The notes under the pieces were generated by a model that saw nothing but the letters and a program-made list of their open reading frames with translations, had not been told where the DNA came from and ran no database searches. Shown piece by piece: positions 1-8,209 of a DNA stretch of 64,000 nucleotides. Where the stretch lies: positions 1 through 64,000 of IMG/VR virus record IMGVR_UViG_2904156775_000002; one strand, given 5' to 3'. Numbering within the stretch: the stretch's first letter is position 1; every line of letters begins with the position of its first letter. Source of the DNA: a virus (lineage: Duplodnaviria; Caudoviricetes). The position numbers and the translations under genes were made by a program.

Positions 1-582
1 TTAGAGAGTTGGCGCGCCCCACAATCTTTCGATGCCCGTTAGTTCCTGACCACTAAATTCCATTTTGTAAATATCCGGCTTGGAGGCTTGCAGCAAGAAA
101 TTCAAACCATATCGCTTGTCGTAATACCCCATGATTAAAGCCATGATGGCTCCATGCGTACCTATCGCGATCCTCTGTCCTGGATGGGTGGTTAATACAT
201 GACGAATAACTGCGATGGCTCGATTCTGACAGGCTTGATTGGATTCGCCACCTTCTAATGCAAATGAAGGATCGGCATAAGATTGCTCCAGCAGAGGCAT
301 TAGCGTCTCATCAGGCAGTCGAATGTCTTTGCCGTCAAAACTTCTCTCCCTTAAATCCTCTATCTGGATGATGTCTTTCCCCATACGCTGCGCCAAATCC
401 TGAATCGTCAGGATCGCTCGTTGAAAGGGACTGGATACGAATACCTCAATTCCTTCCGCCTCGAGCAGTTCCGTTACTCTGCGCGCATCCGCTATCCCCT
501 TTGGAGTTAGCCCTCTCAATCTTTCTGTACCTTCCATTAAGGGCGAATCCCCGTGCCTGACCATGTAGATATAGGTTATCAT
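1..582 (-). CDS. Histidine phosphatase (phosphoglycerate mutase) family protein
   Basis: RHG motif (MVRHGDS), SSPFQRAILT, LRER, GTHG. GGAGG RBS supports a start at ATG 582 rather than 627. Confidence 0.9.
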   Translation of the reverse strand: MITYIYMVRHGDSPLMEGTERLRGLTPKGIADARRVTELLEAEGIEVFVSSPFQRAILTIQDLAQRMGKDIIQIEDLRERSFDGKDIRLPDETLMPLLEQSYADPSFALEGGESNQACQNRAIAVIRHVLTTHPGQRIAIGTHGAIMALIMGYYDKRYGLNFLLQASKPDIYKMEFSGQELTGIERLWGAPTL

Positions 583-783
583 TGGGCCTCCAACTTTTAT
601 GCTAGATTGATATTGATCAACAGTCACAATAAGTGAACAACAAATGGCGTATCACTATTCAACCGTCTTAATGACTAAATCAAATAACTATAGCAGTACT
701 GCATCATTAATGCTTTACTATTGATGGAAAATAATTTATTAAATAGATTTTTATGATAATATATGTTGAAGGGGTGAGTTTGA

Positions 784-1158
784 ATGACAAAATTTCCAAC
801 GAGACTTTTGGAAGCACGTATGAAGAGCACACTGACTCTTAATCAGGTCAGTGAAGCAACGGGGGTAGACGTATCCATAATTAATCGATTAGAGACTGGC
901 GAGTACAATGCTGAACCAATCATTCTCTGCACATTGGCAAGCCTCTATGGAGTTTCTGCAGACTGGCTGATCGGTAGCATTAATAATCCCGACAGAACCC
1001 TTTCTGAAAACGAAAAAGCAGCAGCAGCAGCTATCCGTTCGTACGATTTAACAGCGTTTCTTGAGCAGCCATTCGTGCACAACGGGAAACCATTAAACCG
1101 CGAAGCAAAAAAGAAGTTGTACGTGATGGCCCAGCTTCTTCTTGATCAAGATGAGTAA
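784..1158 (+). CDS. XRE-family helix-turn-helix transcriptional regulator
   Basis: RL..AR....LTL.QVSEATGV..S.I.RLETG....P..LASLYGVSADWLIG is a typical HTH_3 pattern. Confidence 0.9.
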   Translation: MTKFPTRLLEARMKSTLTLNQVSEATGVDVSIINRLETGEYNAEPIILCTLASLYGVSADWLIGSINNPDRTLSENEKAAAAAIRSYDLTAFLEQPFVHNGKPLNREAKKKLYVMAQLLLDQDE

Positions 1159-1438
1159 GGAAGGAATCAATTAATTTACGATTCCTATCAGTCGGAGCTG
1201 CTATTTTATTCAAAAAATCTATTATTGAAACTGTATTCAATTTATCCATTATTATAATCACCCAATTTCTACTATTGAATTAATCGCTATATCATTTCCA
1301 TTTAAACCCACTCCTTCTAAATACACCAGTATTATTCGTGGCCCCAATCTTTTGAACCAATCGACACAAAGCGACACTTCTCGTATAATTCATGTGCTAT
1401 ACTATGTCATTTACAAAAATGAGGCTCGACCATTTAGG

Positions 1439-1834
1439 TCAAGCCTCATTCATGCAATTATATCCTGGCTGTATCTGACGATTTTTTAAATTCAATTCCT
1501 CCATAATCGCCTCGTACTTTGGCCGTGACATATTGCACCATTTTGTATCAGGCCCTACATCATTATCAAAGCAGGCTCTGGAGAAAACTGGATCGAGATA
1601 CGTAATATTGTTCATATTTATCGCTGCTGTTCGATCGCATAATTTAAAAGTAAAACCCTGCTGATTCAACACTTCTATCCAGTAGCTTAATGTACCTTTG
1701 AAATGATAACTTTCATTTGTAGTATGAAACAGCACATTTTTCTTACGCTTATCGCACTCAATAAAATGAATATCCTTGATTTTCACAAGTACAAGTCCAT
1801 TCTCTCCATTAACGGATATGACCACTAACACCAA
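1439..1834 (-). CDS. Stand-alone LytTR DNA-binding domain protein (no receiver domain)
   Basis: VKIKDIHFIE...VLFHT...TL...F..CDRTAAINMNNI matches LytTR. Only 131 aa. Last gene of the agr-like operon. Confidence 0.85.
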   Translation of the reverse strand: MVLVVISVNGENGLVLVKIKDIHFIECDKRKKNVLFHTTNESYHFKGTLSYWIEVLNQQGFTFKLCDRTAAINMNNITYLDPVFSRACFDNDVGPDTKWCNMSRPKYEAIMEELNLKNRQIQPGYNCMNEA

Positions 1835-1842
1835 CTCCAGTT

Positions 1843-1974
1843 TTAGTTCTTTATTAGCAACTCATCTGGCAAGTCTTCTTGATGTACGAATAACCAGCAC
1901 GGACCGACCGCGATGACAACGGCAAGCGATGAGAGCGCTTTTGCCAATACGGAGAATAGAGCTGTTTTAAGCAT
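1843..1974 (-). CDS. agrD: AgrD-like cyclic (thio)lactone autoinducer precursor, 43 aa (absent from ORF track)
   Basis: My translation: MLKTALFSVLAKALSSLAVVIAVGPCWLFVHQEDLPDELLIKN. Amphipathic leader, C-W-L-F-V ring, HQ..LP.EL tail. GGAGG RBS; overlaps the agrB stop. Confidence 0.9.
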   Translation of the reverse strand: MLKTALFSVLAKALSSLAVVIAVGPCWLFVHQEDLPDELLIKN

Positions 1975-2476
1975 GTCTAACCTTACCTCCTTTCAAATGG
2001 AATAACATAATGGACTGAGCCAAAAATGCCGCTGCAATGATTGGAGACTGCACAATAAAATTAATGCTTACGATTCCCGTTGAAATAACACGGAGATAAC
2101 GAAAATATCGTTTTGGAAATAGCGTTCTGCCTTCTATTCTGGATGGCGCGAATACAAGCACAATTAGGACGCTTATCGCTGTCATAGTATGAACTACAGG
2201 CAAGCTGAAATCGGAAAATGAAAGAAGGGTCGCTCCGACTGTTGTCACTATAATACACATTTCAGATGAACCGAGATGAATGCCGCCTGATGTCTGTCTT
2301 AGCAATCCAAATGCGGCCAATGCGATCCACATTTCCGATAACCGCCCTGTGACCAATCCAATAACAGTTGTAATTAAAATAATCGGGATGACATTTAACA
2401 AAAAAGCTAACGTATGCCTGATTCGGCCTACTCGGTCTGAATACTCAGGAACAACTGCCACAATTCTCTCGGCCAT
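1967..2476 (-). CDS. agrB: AgrB-family peptide-processing membrane protease
   Basis: LRQTSGGIH....MC carries the catalytic His/Cys motif; FAP motif; multiple TM segments. The reading frame is open about 9 codons further upstream to a CTG, so the start may be earlier. Confidence 0.9.
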   Translation of the reverse strand: MAERIVAVVPEYSDRVGRIRHTLAFLLNVIPIILITTVIGLVTGRLSEMWIALAAFGLLRQTSGGIHLGSSEMCIIVTTVGATLLSFSDFSLPVVHTMTAISVLIVLVFAPSRIEGRTLFPKRYFRYLRVISTGIVSINFIVQSPIIAAAFLAQSIMLFHLKGGKVRHA

Positions 2477-2499
2477 TTTAGTAGCCAGTCCCTTAATTC

Positions 2500-3120
2500 T
2501 CAGTGCTCTCTCTCCTTTTTTATCGCATAATATAAAAATAGAGCCATGGATCCAATGAAAAACATGCCGGCTAGCAATAGGTTTTCACTGTACATTATGA
2601 AAATAAACGCACCCAAAAACAGTAACGATATTCCGTATATAAGTGGTCTCTCAAATTTAAATTCAAGCCTCTCGAATTCATTAGTAAATCCGATACCGAA
2701 TTTGTAAAGCAACTTTCCAATTACTAAACCCAATACACCTGTTAATAATTGTATCTGATAGCGCGTAAAATTTTGGTCGTTAAGACCATCCAATGATCCG
2801 AATAACGTCGAAACAATCAAGAACTGCAGCAATGAAAACGAAAGGAAGCCAATGGCACCTGATGCTAGGGCACCAATTATCGGCAGACCGGCTATGTATT
2901 TCATAAATAATATCGAAAACAAAATATTAATAACTGGAACGACATACGATATATCCGTTGATTTCAATATCAAGTAGCTTTGCAGATTTGTGAGTGTGAT
3001 AATGATTAGTACCGGTATTATGAATTTTCGAAGATCGAACCTAAATATGTAAAGCATCAATGCGTAAACTGCAAGACCTTCGATTGTAGCAAAAATCATG
3101 GAAACTAGAACATTCCACAT
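2500..3120 (-). CDS. Polytopic membrane protein resembling an AgrC-type sensor region without kinase domain
   Basis: About 6-7 hydrophobic segments, first gene of the agr operon, no H-box or HATPase motif. Confidence 0.65.
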   Translation of the reverse strand: MWNVLVSMIFATIEGLAVYALMLYIFRFDLRKFIIPVLIIITLTNLQSYLILKSTDISYVVPVINILFSILFMKYIAGLPIIGALASGAIGFLSFSLLQFLIVSTLFGSLDGLNDQNFTRYQIQLLTGVLGLVIGKLLYKFGIGFTNEFERLEFKFERPLIYGISLLFLGAFIFIMYSENLLLAGMFFIGSMALFLYYAIKKEREH

Positions 3121-3224
3121 GGCAAATCATCCCTTCGGGCTTTGATTAAAGCTGTACCATCGCCCCTCCCGTTATGAAATGGCAGACTAGATTCAACAAG
3201 TTAATTTTTAGTGATGATAATTGA

Positions 3225-3252
3225 ATTATATGGCATAACCACATAAATACAA
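3225..3252 (-). promoter_or_regulatory. sigmaA-type promoter of the agr-like operon
   Basis: Minus strand TTGTAT-16 nt-TATAAT. Confidence 0.55.
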
Positions 3253-3443
3253 GACTTTATTGTATTTTTTTGTTTCTTTTGCTCGAAGTAATGCTATTAG
3301 AAGATATCATCTGTTGCTTTACGCAAAAACACCTCTACATTTACTCCCATATCTGAAGTTATGGTTTCAAATTATTGAGGTGTTCTGCCCAGGTCTACAG
3401 AGAAAGGAATAACTAGACTGCTCCTTTTTTCTATCATATGATT

Positions 3444-3659
3444 TTAGCTAATGCCTGCCTTTTTTAGTGCGCGACTATAGATAGGTGCACTTCTCATCAT
3501 TTTTTTTACTTCCTCAAATCCGAATAATTCTTCATAGGTTTTTCTGTATGTAAAATATTTTGATTCAAACTTTCGCAAATCTGTTTTAGAACGAAAGATC
3601 AAGGGGACTTCATTCCCATCAGGTAGTACAAAACGTGTATAAATTTTGCTATGGTTCAT
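3444..3659 (-). CDS. Small hypothetical phage-type protein
   Basis: ORF with RBS, overlapping the stop of the upstream ORF (ATGA). Confidence 0.6.
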   Translation of the reverse strand: MNHSKIYTRFVLPDGNEVPLIFRSKTDLRKFESKYFTYRKTYEELFGFEEVKKMMRSAPIYSRALKKAGIS

Positions 3660-3997
3660 GATTTCCTCCCTAGTTCTACAACATTAGTATTCCGAAAATA
3701 AAATAATTCATCGCAATAAAGATCCAATAATTCTTTTAGATGTCTGTTTCCGTTTGTGCAAAAAGCGAGTGACCACGATAATAAATCTTGGTCGAACCAC
3801 TCAAACCTATACATTAACTTATGACCTCTTCTATGGATGGAGCTGCATCTAATTATAGTTGTAAAAATGTTATGTTTTAAATTATATTTGGAACCTACTG
3901 TTATCATAGGCGCATCCACTTCCCGACTGCTGCAAGCTGCCGCATCTGACTGATCTAAATACTCTGTTCCACATTTCATACACTGATGCATAATCAT
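3656..3997 (-). CDS. Hypothetical protein with N-terminal CxxC (possible Zn finger)
   Basis: HQCMKCG...C; GGAG RBS. Confidence 0.6.
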   Translation of the reverse strand: MIMHQCMKCGTEYLDQSDAAACSSREVDAPMITVGSKYNLKHNIFTTIIRCSSIHRRGHKLMYRFEWFDQDLLSWSLAFCTNGNRHLKELLDLYCDELFYFRNTNVVELGRKS

Positions 3998-4073
3998 TCA
4001 CTCCTGCCTCATTTTAATGTAACAAATTAAATAAAAAAATTATTAACTCTCAAAATAGTTAAATCAAGCACAT

Positions 4074-4274
4074 CTAAAGCATCATTTCCTTATGTCTCTG
4101 AATCCATTCCATATAGCTATTATATGTACTTGCCTCTAATTCAGCTTTGATGAATGGAAGAGCCTGTTCTACAGCCATAATTTCAAATGCTGATGGGCTG
4201 TCTTTTTCTTTTGTACTGTAGCTAAACAATAAATTAATAATGATTTCTCTAGAACCTGCTTCAGTAATCTCCAT
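4074..4274 (-). CDS. Small hypothetical protein
   Basis: ORF with AAGGA RBS in a co-oriented cluster. Confidence 0.55.
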   Translation of the reverse strand: MEITEAGSREIIINLLFSYSTKEKDSPSAFEIMAVEQALPFIKAELEASTYNSYMEWIQRHKEMML

Positions 4275-4350
4275 GATTGCTTTCCTTCTTTCCTAAATAT
4301 ATTAAACATTCAATATCATTAACTCTTATATGAGTAGAGGGTAACTCCCC

Positions 4351-4584
4351 CTAATAGGCTATAGATAAGGATGCGCTAAACTTTATCTTTTTTAGTGTAA
4401 TATCCAGCGCGTACATGTTCCCATCATATAAATCTATAAACCGGTCTAAATCATCCATGGTTTTAATATATTTCATCAATTCCACATACAAAAAAGAGTC
4501 CTGCTTCACGCCACAACAATGCTCCACCCACTCAAAAAAATGTTCAACTGAATCCTCCCAATTATAAAGCAATGAAACATTCAA
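4351..4584 (-). CDS. Small hypothetical protein
   Basis: TTG start with strong AAGGAGG RBS. Confidence 0.6.
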   Translation of the reverse strand: MNVSLLYNWEDSVEHFFEWVEHCCGVKQDSFLYVELMKYIKTMDDLDRFIDLYDGNMYALDITLKKIKFSASLSIAY

Positions 4585-4703
4585 CTAATTATCCTCCTTA
4601 TCATATTTTTTCCTCTTTTCCACATTAGCACGTAAGCTTGTAATTAAAAAGATAAAAATTTGATCTTTATTTTTTTCTTTACATTCAAATCGTATTATGC
4701 ATC

Positions 4704-5183
4704 TTAGTATTCGAATTTTCCAATAAATGAGTCATGATGTGTATCTTTTTCTTTACCTAATGCCTTTATAAGAATTTTAATAGCTTCTCCTGTTACTCTA
4801 ACCTCTTCTCCATTTATAAAAATCACTCTTCTATAATAAGAATTGAAATTCATAATTTTATCTTTATTAATTACAAATCCTTTATTCAAATAGCAATAGT
4901 TTTTATTCTTCTCTACCAGATACTCTAATAAGCTGTACGCCGAATTATGAAATGGGATTTCGGAAGTTAAGGTATGTATATACACTTTCCCTTTTTGTGG
5001 TGTACTGACATATAGAACTTCATTGGGATCCAGCAACCGCATTGTGTTGTTTTCCAGGGGTAAAAATAATAGACCCGTTTCACTTACATTATTTGATATG
5101 ATTTCTATAATTTTATTCTTATAGTTAAATGAATAATGACTGATTTCATTTCTTAACATCTTCAGTAAACGATCACTGTTCAT
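4704..5183 (-). CDS. Second stand-alone LytTR-domain regulator
   Basis: LLDPNEVLYV....GKVYIHT...L...YLNKGFVINKDKI..F...V.F.NGE.V.V. Confidence 0.75.
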   Translation of the reverse strand: MNSDRLLKMLRNEISHYSFNYKNKIIEIISNNVSETGLLFLPLENNTMRLLDPNEVLYVSTPQKGKVYIHTLTSEIPFHNSAYSLLEYLVEKNKNYCYLNKGFVINKDKIMNFNSYYRRVIFINGEEVRVTGEAIKILIKALGKEKDTHHDSFIGKFEY

Positions 5184-5443
5184 GACATGGATCTCCTCCC
5201 TTCCGTTAACAGTCCATTAGTCACTATTCTATATATTCAATATGATAATATATGACAAACCTATTATCATTTAATGGGACAATAGCACTACAAGTATAGC
5301 AAATGCTGTTATTACGAAGCAAGTTTCTGGAACGTATCAACAGCTATCATAGAGATGCAGCTTTAACTTATCAATTTATAGTATGGATTCTCCTTTTTTA
5401 TGAAATATAGCATTTTTCATTTTAAAAAATCAAGCCAACGAAA

Positions 5444-5475
5444 AAATATCCTAAAAGTTTCCCTTTAGGATATTT
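5444..5475 (-). terminator. Hairpin terminator after the mrpR-like gene
   Basis: AAATATCCTAAA-8 nt-TTTAGGATATTT inverted repeat with a T-run on the minus strand. Confidence 0.55.
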
Positions 5476-6436
5476 CATAGAGTTCCCGTATGGTTCTTTC
5501 ATTCAAAAAATCATCTTTGTAGCGTCTTAATGTCGTTTCATTAAAATTAAATTGCAGAGCGATTTCTTTGTAGCCCACTTTATCCAAATTGCCGTTCATC
5601 AATAATTGCTTTGCCTTCGCCAGCATCCCTGAATACATGATCGATGTAGGGTTTAGCTTTGGCTCATTAAAGTATTCAGCTACTGTGGAGTATCTTCGAT
5701 AAACAACCATTCCATCGGCCTCTTGAGTGTTTTTCACACCAATGTCTACAGACCGAACTATAAATTCATTGCTTATCAGATGCGCCGTTTCCGATTTTAT
5801 CCCCTTCTCCGGATTGCCGTTGCTTTTAATGAATTCTTCTTCCTTCATAGCCTGATGGCATAATCTAATAAATTCATGATCCACTTGTACCGTTCTTACA
5901 CTTTTGTCCAGGTCGACTAATCTGGCTGTCATAGTTTCATCATCGATATCTGATTTTTTCAGGTTTACGATTTCAGAATTTTCCGTCCCCTTAATGCCTA
6001 TAAACGGTGCATAAAAGACGATTGCAACCTGTGCAGATACAATGCCATTCACCATTTCTTTAATCTCTGAATCTGTCCAATAGTTTTTTTCAGGCTTGAC
6101 CACAAACTGCTCTTTCCAGCGAACATCCACAGTCTCAAGCGGATTAATCCCATTATAATATTCTTCATCAATGGCCCAATCAATATATCCAGAGACGTAT
6201 TGAACGGTTGACTTTGATGCACTTGGGGTGGACGCCATGAAAGTAAAAAACAGCTTTCGCAATTCTTCTCGCGTAAAGGTAAATAGCTCTTTATCCATAT
6301 CTGACTCAAAGACCTGTGTAATTTTAAAAATTCGCTCCAAGTTTTTTTGAGTGCCTTTTTTGTGGGAACTGATATATTCTCTTTTCACTTCAGCATTATA
6401 CATTTTATCTTCATAAACAATGTTAGACATTCGCAT
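5465..6436 (-). CDS. mrpR: MrpR/YopR-like phage lytic-cycle repressor (degenerate tyrosine-recombinase fold)
   Basis: MYNAEVK..YI start, SAM-like N-domain, GIKG.E.SEI.NLK, SIMYSGM. Lies downstream of a YopQ-like gene as in SPbeta. Catalytic R/HxxR residues not evident. RBS favours a start at 6436 or 6430. Confidence 0.75.
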   Translation of the reverse strand: MRMSNIVYEDKMYNAEVKREYISSHKKGTQKNLERIFKITQVFESDMDKELFTFTREELRKLFFTFMASTPSASKSTVQYVSGYIDWAIDEEYYNGINPLETVDVRWKEQFVVKPEKNYWTDSEIKEMVNGIVSAQVAIVFYAPFIGIKGTENSEIVNLKKSDIDDETMTARLVDLDKSVRTVQVDHEFIRLCHQAMKEEEFIKSNGNPEKGIKSETAHLISNEFIVRSVDIGVKNTQEADGMVVYRRYSTVAEYFNEPKLNPTSIMYSGMLAKAKQLLMNGNLDKVGYKEIALQFNFNETTLRRYKDDFLNERTIRELYEIS

Positions 6437-6446
6437 CAATCCCCTC

Positions 6447-7775
6447 TTAATCCAGGATATTATCCACTTGGGATTCAATAAATTCTCTAATTTGCGATTT
6501 CACCTTGTTGCTATTCGTTTTTCCTTGTCCTCCCATGATATCATTAAGCGGAGAGCTAACTTTGTTAAAGTTAATATGATCTATAACCGCTACAATCTTA
6601 TCGACTGGAAAGTCTTTGCCGTACCTGTCGTATAGTTTCTTGGCAATGGCAATAAAACCAACATGCATATTATGATGGCTAATCCAAGATGATTCGAGGT
6701 TTTTAATTCTATTCTTTACTAGCTCAGATTCATAAGAAGGAATCAAATATTCATAAAACTTTTTCAGAACATCTTGTATGTCGTACCTATCCTTTGTATT
6801 TTCAGGCTCGAATATGTCTTGAATAGCTTCTGACAGGATCGCAAAATTAGTAATTGATATTTTTTTGTCTACTGCCGTTTTAATTTCAATCCGATTGTGG
6901 AGCACAGGGATTGTCATCAAATATTTCGCGATTTCTTGTCCATATTGTTCTCCGCCATAATATTTAGTTAATGTTTTATCAAATGGATTAACCGTATTCG
7001 TTATGGCTAATAGCTTTTGAGCTTTTTCTAAAGGGTAATGCTTAAGATCAATATTCATATATCCTTCGAATTCAGGATCCTCTTCTATAATTCGAATGAC
7101 CGCTTCCAAGCGATGAGCTCCATCAATAATATTGAGTGTTGATTCTTTATGAATGGTCAACTCGCCGCTATTAAAGCTGATACTGCTATTTCCATCTACA
7201 AGCACATTAAACAATAAAGTAGAAGGGTTATATTTTCCTTCCTTCATGAGCTTTACGATATTACTTACACTTGCATTTTTTATATTTCTTTTTTTAATGA
7301 TTTTACCTGTTTTTGAAATGGTTTTTTTGGCTAGTCGCTGAGTGTCAAAATTGTAAGTGAGCAAACCGCTATTGGCTAGAGCAGCCAAATCCTTAAATGA
7401 TATAGCAGTCAAGTAATCCTCATTCGTTACTCTGATAACAGGACTAAATGTATATGGAAAGGCGATTTCCTCAGGCTTAGAAAACGCAAAGTATTTAATA
7501 GCTTTTATCGTGTTAAGATCAAAATAATTTTTGACAAATAAAGTTTCGTTTTGAGTAACCGTATGTATTCCGTTTGTAATGACTGCTAATTCCTCTGTAG
7601 AAAGAAATCCAACCTTTTCAGGATTAGCAACTAACTCAATAAATGTTCCCCTCATCATTTCATGATGCTCGACTAGATACTCTTCTATCATTCGTTGCTG
7701 ATTTCTATGTTTCGCAATAGAAGAAAGTTCTTCTGAAAGCACCTCATAAATATTTTTCTCTTCTGTTTTCATCAT
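6447..7775 (-). CDS. DGQHR/DndB-domain protein (SPbeta YopQ-like)
   Basis: YNFDTQR and IIDGAHRL motifs; about 440 aa; coupled to the mrpR-like gene. Confidence 0.8.
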   Translation of the reverse strand: MMKTEEKNIYEVLSEELSSIAKHRNQQRMIEEYLVEHHEMMRGTFIELVANPEKVGFLSTEELAVITNGIHTVTQNETLFVKNYFDLNTIKAIKYFAFSKPEEIAFPYTFSPVIRVTNEDYLTAISFKDLAALANSGLLTYNFDTQRLAKKTISKTGKIIKKRNIKNASVSNIVKLMKEGKYNPSTLLFNVLVDGNSSISFNSGELTIHKESTLNIIDGAHRLEAVIRIIEEDPEFEGYMNIDLKHYPLEKAQKLLAITNTVNPFDKTLTKYYGGEQYGQEIAKYLMTIPVLHNRIEIKTAVDKKISITNFAILSEAIQDIFEPENTKDRYDIQDVLKKFYEYLIPSYESELVKNRIKNLESSWISHHNMHVGFIAIAKKLYDRYGKDFPVDKIVAVIDHINFNKVSSPLNDIMGGQGKTNSNKVKSQIREFIESQVDNILD

Positions 7776-7814
7776 TCTCAACTCCTTTAAATACAAATTT
7801 TCATTCCATTGATG

Positions 7815-7823
7815 ATTATAGCA
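7815..7823 (-). promoter_or_regulatory. Extended -10 promoter for the yopQ-mrpR-like operon
   Basis: TGcTATAAT on the minus strand about 40 nt upstream of the start codon. Confidence 0.55.
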
Positions 7824-7888
7824 CAACAATATGTAAAAAAAAATACATCCTCCTGCAACCTAATTTGTTTATTCCTACGAATAAATAG

Positions 7889-7927
7889 GAACATATGTTT
7901 GCTTAATCTAATAGATCATGCTATGAT
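7889..7927 (+). promoter_or_regulatory. LexA (Cheo) box overlapping a rightward sigmaA promoter
   Basis: GAACATATGTTT (7889-7900) overlaps -35 TTGCTT (7899-7904); 17-nt spacer; TGcTATGAT. Confidence 0.7.
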
Positions 7928-7969
7928 TGCCGTATACAAGACTCGTTTACTTTCATAGACCGTAAGGAG

Positions 7970-8209
7970 ATGATTTCAATGAATTCCAACTTTTATGTAG
8001 CTGGCCGGCTTATCGTTCCTATTTATCTTGAGGTACAAGAATCTTGTACAAAATATGCAATTCAAGCAGCTTCCAAAGCGCTTAGTACGAATACAATCTC
8101 CGTACTTCATGGCAATATCCACACCTGGAATGGCAAAGAATACCCGATTATCGCCAATAGAATTCATGTTGACTGGTATGAAACAGTTAAAAAAGAAGAG
8201 ATGATTTAG
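7970..8209 (+). CDS. Small hypothetical protein
   Basis: AAGGAG RBS; first ORF after the LexA-box promoter. Confidence 0.6.
   Translation: MISMNSNFYVAGRLIVPIYLEVQESCTKYAIQAASKALSTNTISVLHGNIHTWNGKEYPIIANRIHVDWYETVKKEEMI

Follow-up and report, generated by a model that had tools for sequence, protein, structure and literature searches.

The agr system is the textbook case of peptide quorum sensing and is described as a phosphorelay from a kinase to a regulator: how, then, would an agr-like operon respond to its peptide when both phosphorelay modules are gone? The question is raised by the stretch of DNA analyzed here (positions 1 to 64,000 of the IMG/VR virus record IMGVR_UViG_2904156775_000002, Caudoviricetes; the whole 64,000 nucleotides are called the window below). 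Four tightly packed open reading frames (ORFs) on its minus strand, at 1439-3252 in a Paenibacillus prophage region, encode in order a membrane protein (MEM), the peptidase AgrB, the precursor peptide AgrD, and a LytTR DNA-binding protein without a receiver. A sequence-only reading of the window had proposed such an operon, with a membrane protein of 206 amino acids (aa), AgrB, a 43-aa AgrD and a receiver-less LytTR protein, and the ORFs, their spacing and their family scores confirm it. What that reading overlooked is that the membrane protein itself is, as judged by profile comparison, a homologue of the sensor domain of AgrC-type histidine kinases, without their DHp and ATPase modules; this homology is new here. 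Because MEM also holds the gene position of AgrC, the window operon amounts to agrC-agrB-agrD-agrA minus both phosphorelay modules. We conclude that it is a real, conserved, phage-borne, kinase-less and receiver-less agr variant, the composition of which is solid and the mechanism of which we infer.

MEM has no match in Pfam, NCBIfam or the PDB sequences (the best PDB entry was CorA, at E 0.08), and 91 members of its family scanned against Pfam gave no consistent family assignment. In the protein atlas it matches only unnamed Bacillota clusters, and it matches phrog_15604 (E 9.7e-11). Neither HisKA, SPOB_a nor HATPase has a match in the protein, which stops at residue 206 after helix 7. The AlphaFold2 (AF2) model (predicted local distance difference test, pLDDT, 88.1; predicted template modelling score, pTM, 0.81) contains seven long helices; in comparisons of this model with solved structures, Foldseek returned nothing at E <= 0.001, and the best VIA-align Z of 7.4 is within noise for helical bundles. 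An assignment of MEM as a CPBP/Abi-type protease was rejected, as there are no conserved Glu-Glu or His motifs.

The identity of MEM comes instead from its longer relatives. A profile of the MEM family was run over 401 Bacilli genomes and, in a second run, over a phylum-wide sample of 401 genomes. The first run gave 59 matched places in 46 genomes, 41 of them in frames of 193-270 aa, while the other 18 are the first ~200 residues of frames of 418-487 aa. Nine of ten such long relatives examined lie directly upstream of AgrB. Five of the ten carry SPOB_a and HATPase_c_5, and three of these five match the NCBIfam AgrC family NF046015 almost end to end (E 1e-17, 4e-12 and 2e-14). In the remaining five the C-terminal half is unrecognised by Pfam and is homologous to the kinase half of the first five (hhalign 98.7 %); the H-box histidine and the N and G boxes are lost, so these proteins are pseudokinases. 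Aligned with the N-terminal domains of the two kinase groups, MEM scores 98.0 % (E 2e-13) and 99.1 % (E 4.5e-19) in hhalign. The intramembrane glutamate E14 of helix 1 is common to 15 of 16 aligned sequences (6/6 MEM, 9/10 kinases), and position 99 in helix 4 is Q in 6/6 MEM and Q or E in 7/10 kinases. MEM ends right after helix 7, at the point where AgrC kinases run on into the DHp helix. In the phylum-wide sample 56 of the 401 genomes match the profile, and four of eight loci examined have the matching stretch in the sensor region of an AgrC, with AgrB and then a REC-LytTR regulator downstream.

Several of these relatives have unusual architectures of their own. The closest long relatives of MEM are AgrC-like pseudokinases of 413-450 aa upstream of AgrB (loci L073-L077, in genomes G010, G116, G080, G201 and G122); a soluble HisKA-HATPase_c gene (269/270 aa) lies directly upstream of the pseudokinase in L075 and L077, and a REC-LytTR regulator follows in L074 and L076. 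At four loci from other Bacillota (L090, L092, L094 and L095) AgrC is apparently divided between a membrane ORF of 157-170 aa and an SPOB_a/HATPase_c_5 ORF of 284-304 aa that overlaps it, with AgrB and then a REC-LytTR regulator downstream; as four genomes show this arrangement, a sequencing error is unlikely. Sensor-kinase, AgrB and REC-LytTR regulator follow one another in this order at L074 and L076 as well as at these four loci. One further locus (L062, G093:C20) has tandem MEM genes (222 and 223 aa) ahead of a single AgrB gene.

The short form is a family in its own right, defined by a length of ~200-250 aa, seven helices and a gene directly upstream of agrB, all of which fit the window MEM. 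A profile search of 1.84 billion representatives found 453 at E <= 1e-3 and 214 at E <= 1e-10, and the best 150 of the 453 are all 248 aa or shorter. Matches from a word-index search are 193-218 aa in 13 of 13 cases; a word-index search for longer relatives gave none, which was a false negative, as the genome profile search later found those of 418-487 aa. Family members share two motifs that are absent from the kinases, a K-F-G-I-G-F cytoplasmic loop between helices 5 and 6 and a C-terminal Y-Y-A-I-K-K-E-R-E, and the residues E14, R27, G91, Q99, Q124, G144, F145, E157, Y197, A199 and E203 are invariant. With helix positions taken from the AF2 model, 12 K/R fall in the predicted inner loops and tail and 2 in the outer loops, from which the topology of MEM is predicted to be N-out, C-in.

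The arrangement of genes is as constant as the length of the sensor. AgrB and AgrD come after MEM at 21 of 21 Paenibacillus/Cohnella loci, and a LytTR ORF is next in line in 20 of the 21 (it is absent in L030 and split in L033). Thirty loci were returned from the Bacilli sample, and AgrB was found in 29 of them by phmmer and in the thirtieth by Pfam. None of 139 flanking ORFs (>=100 aa, within 3.5 kb) has a histidine-kinase domain match; these ORFs come from 20 of the 21 loci, L035 being left out as a duplicate of L034. Within the window operon there is no room for kinase or receiver remnants, since MEM and AgrB are separated by 23 nt and AgrD and LytTR by 8 nt, AgrB and AgrD overlapping by 8 nt. 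By these comparisons the kinase-less, receiver-less state is conserved and is no local truncation, so that this claim of the sequence-only reading is borne out across the family. Its caution that homologues might normally carry a kinase applies to the remote relatives (E 1e-17 to 1e-6) but not to the close family, which is uniformly ~200-250 aa. On P. ottowii contigs two pairs of loci (L027/L028 and L034/L035) each show the same cassette twice, upstream flank included, at a distance of 60 kb and 38 kb within one contig; these may be repeated prophages or an assembly duplication.

The signal-producing half of the operon is of ordinary agr type. AgrB matches PF04647 (E 1.4e-13, 51 bits, cut-off 23) and is the sole copy in the genome that contains the window; R60, G64, G65, H67 and C74 are the same in 18 of 18 orthologues, H67 and C74 (H-x6-C) being, by work on S. 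aureus, the catalytic pair. AgrD matches TIGR04223 (E 4.5e-8, 33.1 bits, cut-off 19), and its ATG is preceded at 10 nt by AGGAGG. In staphylococcal AgrD the ring comprises five residues at a fixed position, and by analogy, because the Cys of the window AgrD stands 10 residues before the conserved Pro of an acidic P-[ED]-EL tail, the product is predicted to be a five-residue thiolactone, CWLFV. The C/S-to-Pro spacing of 10 is found in 22 of 22 AgrD ORFs (the window and 21 genome loci). In the AgrD-like peptides of two phages described below, Abouo (L041, 4372-4500) and Harrison (L042, 4366-4494), neither Cys nor Ser stands at this distance from the conserved Pro; if these peptides form a ring at all, its chemistry may not be that of the window peptide.

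The last gene product is a LytTR domain and little else. It matches PF04397 (E 2.6e-10, 40.8 bits, cut-off 22.6) over residues 13-110 of 131, and Response_reg has no match in it. An alternative GTG start at 1825, three codons in and 9 nt after GGAG, equals the start of the homologue in L021, so that a length of 128 aa is as likely as 131. The AF2 model (pLDDT 82.7) has as its best solved match the LytTR domain of S. aureus AgrA (4g4k_B, E 7.5e-7, template modelling score by target 0.76). The genome of the window, which is 99.65 % complete, contains five other LytTR matches and is rich in histidine kinases (22 HATPase_c_5 matches). No REC-LytTR regulator of AgrA type was found among the four other LytTR ORFs scanned, which have no Response_reg at E <= 1e-5 (two were rechecked at E <= 0.05); the fifth match (C23) was not scanned over its whole length. 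This fifth LytTR gene (L004, G000:C23, ~183-186 kb) lies beside a gene for a DUF3021 membrane protein, a layout of BrsRM type. A second stand-alone LytTR-like gene is present in the window itself, at 4704-5183 on the minus strand, just downstream of an MrpR-like gene; its 159-aa product has no Pfam LytTR match, is 70 % identical to L020:4032-4529, which matches PF04397 at E 8.7e-9, and aligns weakly to the profile of the cassette LytTR (hhalign 44 %, E 2e-4).

The four genes look like one operon with its own start and end (Table 1), as suggested by a promoter-like site ahead of MEM and a terminator hairpin behind LytTR. In the promoter-like site the -10 is perfect and the -35 weak, with 3/6 consensus matches, for which reason a consensus promoter scan did not list it; it is also conserved in P. 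paeoniae (locus L020), and the end that the sequence-only reading had given to the cassette, 3252, is its -35. The hairpin has a folding energy of -30.9 kcal/mol (z -7.9; none of 200 shuffles was equally stable) and is followed by U5.

Table 1. Features of the putative operon and its convergent neighbour, in window coordinates
Feature	Position	Strand	Product length	Remarks
MEM (membrane protein)	3120..2500	-	206 aa	
AgrB peptidase	2476..1967	-	169 aa	
AgrD precursor	1974..1843	-	43 aa	
LytTR DNA-binding protein, receiver-less	1834..1439	-	131 aa from TTG (128-131 aa)	
Promoter-like site TTGTAT-16 nt-TATAAT	3252-3225	-		Upstream of MEM; read from sequence
Intrinsic-terminator-like hairpin and U-run	1411..1457	-		Ends operon; overlaps LytTR stop codon
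Cro/CI-type helix-turn-helix (HTH) gene, convergent	784..1158	+	124 aa	HTH_3 E 8.3e-10; conserved neighbour, membership in cassette not shown

The cassette is carried by isolated phages. The same four genes occur in two plaque-forming phages, Brevibacillus phage Abouo (gp44-47) and Paenibacillus larvae phage Harrison (38-41), where the MEM profile matches Abouo gp44 and Harrison 38 at E 1e-35 and 2e-36 and the genes annotated 'peptidase' are LytTR domains (E about 1e-6); phages Davies and Paisley have AgrB matches too. A megablast of window positions 1-8000 against phages gave no match, nor did tblastn of MEM, although the MEM profile finds both Abouo gp44 and Harrison 38. At most of the genome loci the cassette has an integrase or a lysis module (holin, endolysin) on one side and, on the other, a repressor gene of CI type that runs toward it. 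Such convergent CI-type HTH genes are present in L023, L024, L026, L028, L034, L037 and L038, and a few loci look chromosomal (L025, L030, L033 and L039). In the window it stands between an arm of MrpR/YopQ type and the convergent HTH gene, which adjoins a host histidine-phosphatase gene, and homologues of the 124-aa HTH protein are at the same place in L020, L021 and L022.

Related species also show that the cassette is separable from the phage-derived arm beside it. In L021 and L022 the sequence is collinear with the window from 45.7 to 40.7 kb and then passes straight to 3.1-0.7 kb: a block of ~37.5 kb (window about 3150-40650) is missing, while the cassette and its HTH neighbour are kept with the same host flank, so the link to the SPbeta-like MrpR/YopQ arm is not obligatory. 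P. paeoniae (L020) has the block, which contains MrpR-like and DndB/YopQ-like genes, an 857-aa phrog_8308 protein, a 1750-aa tape measure, tail genes, holin and endolysin. As there is no PHROG match to portal, terminase or capsid inside it, the block could be a nested or tail-only phage-derived element. The suggestion in the sequence-only reading that the cassette stands in for arbitrium is not supported so far, two relatives having kept the cassette without the MrpR/YopQ block. AimR itself has no match in the genome at E <= 0.01, a result from a single SPbeta AimR query, which is a weak test for a divergent family.

Compared with the canonical agr system (S. aureus agrBDCA), the cassette has AgrB and AgrD and has neither the AgrC kinase nor the AgrA REC-LytTR regulator. 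It shares with that system the His/Cys pair of AgrB, an AgrD with C/S at the position of a five-residue ring and an acidic P-x-EL tail, a polytopic sensor homologous to that of AgrC-like kinases, and a LytTR domain whose best structural match is AgrA. It differs in lacking DHp and ATPase on the sensor and a receiver on the regulator, in its order (sensor-B-D-regulator as against B-D-C-A), in the lack of recognisable P2/P3-type repeats in the window, and in its carriage by phages and prophages. A temperate phage with an agr cassette is known: phiCDHM1 of Clostridioides difficile has an agr3 locus (agrC-agrB-agrD) in which, as in the window, the sensor gene is upstream of agrB, but its AgrC is a full kinase of ~450 aa and it has no regulator gene, whereas the window has LytTR (PMC3901668, in the text available). 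One sentence of the same paper (Hargreaves 2014) credits the phages Davies, Emery and Abouo with AgrB, a putative AgrD, and membrane proteins, perhaps AgrC homologues without the ATPase domain; the available text holds no homology test and no mention of the LytTR gene, which is a 'peptidase' in the phage records. Beyond that sentence, a literature search with supplements outside its scope returned no study of a kinase-less agr cassette: in the accessible parts of PMC4909266 and PMC4168068 AgrB merely appears in gene tables, and those of PMC8895600 contain no treatment of kinase-less agr forms.

The second system with which the cassette can be compared is the LytTR regulatory systems of Streptococcus mutans (HdrRM and BrsRM; PMC6193735, in the portions available), where a soluble stand-alone LytTR protein likewise shares its transcript with a polytopic membrane protein and no phosphorelay takes part. 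The comparison, which the sequence-only reading had drawn, is a fair analogy and does not extend to membership: in those systems the regulator gene comes first and there are no peptide genes, whereas in the window the membrane gene is first and AgrB and AgrD lie between, and the membrane proteins of those systems come from different families (DUF2154, DUF3021 and others). The 9-bp repeats that mark them, placed 10 bp ahead of the -35, are not found in the window, and no signal is named in the available text of PMC6193735, while the window operon encodes a candidate peptide ligand. With arbitrium (AimR-AimP-AimX) the cassette has in common a phage-borne peptide signal in a regulatory arm near yopQ/yopR-type genes (as in the SPbeta record), but a linear hexapeptide and a cytoplasmic tetratricopeptide-repeat receptor are set against a cyclic peptide and a membrane receptor, and the components are unrelated. 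The cassette is agr-like for production and probably similar to LytTR regulatory systems for sensing, and it lacks defining features of both.

Taken together, we favour, with somewhat more confidence than doubt, the explanation that the four genes form an agr-type peptide-signalling operon that is complete in itself but has neither phosphorelay module, and in which MEM gates LytTR by contact. The claims on composition and homology are made with high confidence, and phosphorylation-independent sensing is the most economical reading, because the cassette has no kinase and no receiver, this state is conserved, and no AgrA-type regulator was found among the LytTR ORFs scanned in the genome. In this explanation AgrB would process the 43-aa AgrD to a small cyclic peptide (predicted ring CWLFV), which would then be exported and would bind the outward-facing half of MEM, the site of the conserved polar residues E14, Q47, Q99 and Q124. 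MEM would control the LytTR protein directly through the K-F-G-I-G-F loop and the Y-Y-A-I-K-K-E-R-E tail, the regulator being held at the membrane and then released, as in LytTR regulatory systems or with anti-sigma factors; this holding and release would make transcription depend on the density of cells that carry the element. The likeliest target, given the place of the cassette in phages, is the lysogeny/induction decision or a trait expressed by lysogens. The contact step by itself we put forward tentatively, as a little less than an even prospect.

A number of observations weigh against this explanation. The contact between MEM and LytTR is something we infer, and operon expression and peptide production are predicted from the genes. 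Six of the 30 Bacilli loci (L065-L069 and L071) have no recognisable downstream LytTR ORF, so the association of MEM with AgrB is stricter than its association with LytTR, which fits a role in peptide production equally well. Mean identity over 153 locus pairs is 32.9 % for LytTR, 39.2 % for MEM and 42.8 % for AgrB: LytTR is the most divergent part, unlike the staphylococcal pattern of variable sensor and conserved regulator, which was looked for in these pairs and not found. No convincing LytTR-type direct repeat stands beside the window promoter, and none of >=8/9 lies upstream; ten intergenic regions of the window likewise have no direct repeat of >=8/9 at 11-13 nt spacing, and the 8/9 repeats found in L034, L035 and L037 are within chance for AT-rich DNA (by our estimate, ~0.6 expected per 330-nt region over five spacings). 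There is, finally, a prophage variant (L057/L083, in G304:C14, and L058/L084) in which a kinase-less MEM (214 aa), AgrB and AgrD are joined by a 253-aa regulator with a receiver, between a large serine recombinase and a CI/Cro pair and with no kinase gene within 5 kb; the pairing of such a MEM with a REC-LytTR regulator means that loss of the kinase is not always coupled to loss of the receiver.

These observations bear in different ways on what else the cassette might be. MEM might be an accessory for making, exporting or resisting the peptide and no receptor at all, with LytTR a constitutive or otherwise controlled regulator of the operon. Maturation of AgrD in staphylococci requires a second membrane protein, and MEM is always beside AgrB (21/21 and 30/30 loci) while LytTR may be missing; we nevertheless judge such a role unlikely, as MEM is homologous to the AgrC-type sensor domain and has its gene position, shows no fixed set of His, Cys, Ser or Asp residues of the kind that points to an enzyme, and carries its best-conserved family-specific motifs on the cytoplasmic side. 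Signalling might also still run by phosphorylation, MEM working with an unlinked soluble histidine kinase and the output passing through another regulator. The soluble kinase genes beside two pseudokinases, the receiver-bearing prophage variant and the many HATPase_c_5 matches of the genome all lend something to this possibility, but the window LytTR protein has no receiver to phosphorylate, no kinase gene lies within 3.5 kb of the 20 surveyed loci, and none of the four scanned LytTR ORFs elsewhere in the genome has a receiver; the idea seems to us quite improbable.

Phage morons frequently rewire host regulation, and the genome has five other LytTR matches, so a bare LytTR could be an interference device that competes for host LytTR sites, with the peptide and MEM serving, for example, cross-talk with the agr of neighbours. 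The LytTR gene is, however, apparently co-transcribed with MEM-AgrB-AgrD in 20 of 21 loci, its product diverges with the cassette and is not fixed on a host site, and the host itself lacks an agr system that could be disturbed, which makes this very improbable. That the cassette is a decaying agrCBDA remnant without present function is hardly credible: LytTR is lost in L030, split in L033 and absent from L065-L069, and the window cassette lies on the border of a composite prophage region, but none of the four ORFs is broken, AgrB keeps its His and Cys in 18/18, the family has hundreds of members of uniform length, the C-terminus of MEM is a conserved motif and no ragged end, and plaque-forming phages carry the cassette. 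The self-contained peptide-signalling operon, with MEM as a sensor that gates LytTR, thus remains the explanation that we favour.

The sensor and output domains of agr exist, then, in a large and conserved family that has neither phosphorelay module, and the dead-kinase and split-kinase relatives represent intermediate forms. If MEM contacts LytTR directly, the cassette would be a natural two-component system turned into a switch that works by contact and whose ligand is a product of the operon itself; LytTR regulatory systems have no known ligand so far. The presence of the cassette on plaque-forming temperate phages, next to integrase and repressor genes, makes it a candidate for a second phage communication system, unrelated to arbitrium. 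More specifically, temperate phages of Paenibacillus and Brevibacillus might use an agr-derived cyclic peptide as a signal between phages or between lysogens, with a kinase-less sensor directly gating a bare LytTR protein that feeds into a lysogeny switch of CI/Cro or MrpR type, a proposal that we regard as doubtful though not far-fetched. If it is true, these phages would possess a new communication system, and a two-component sensor domain would signal free of phosphorylation.

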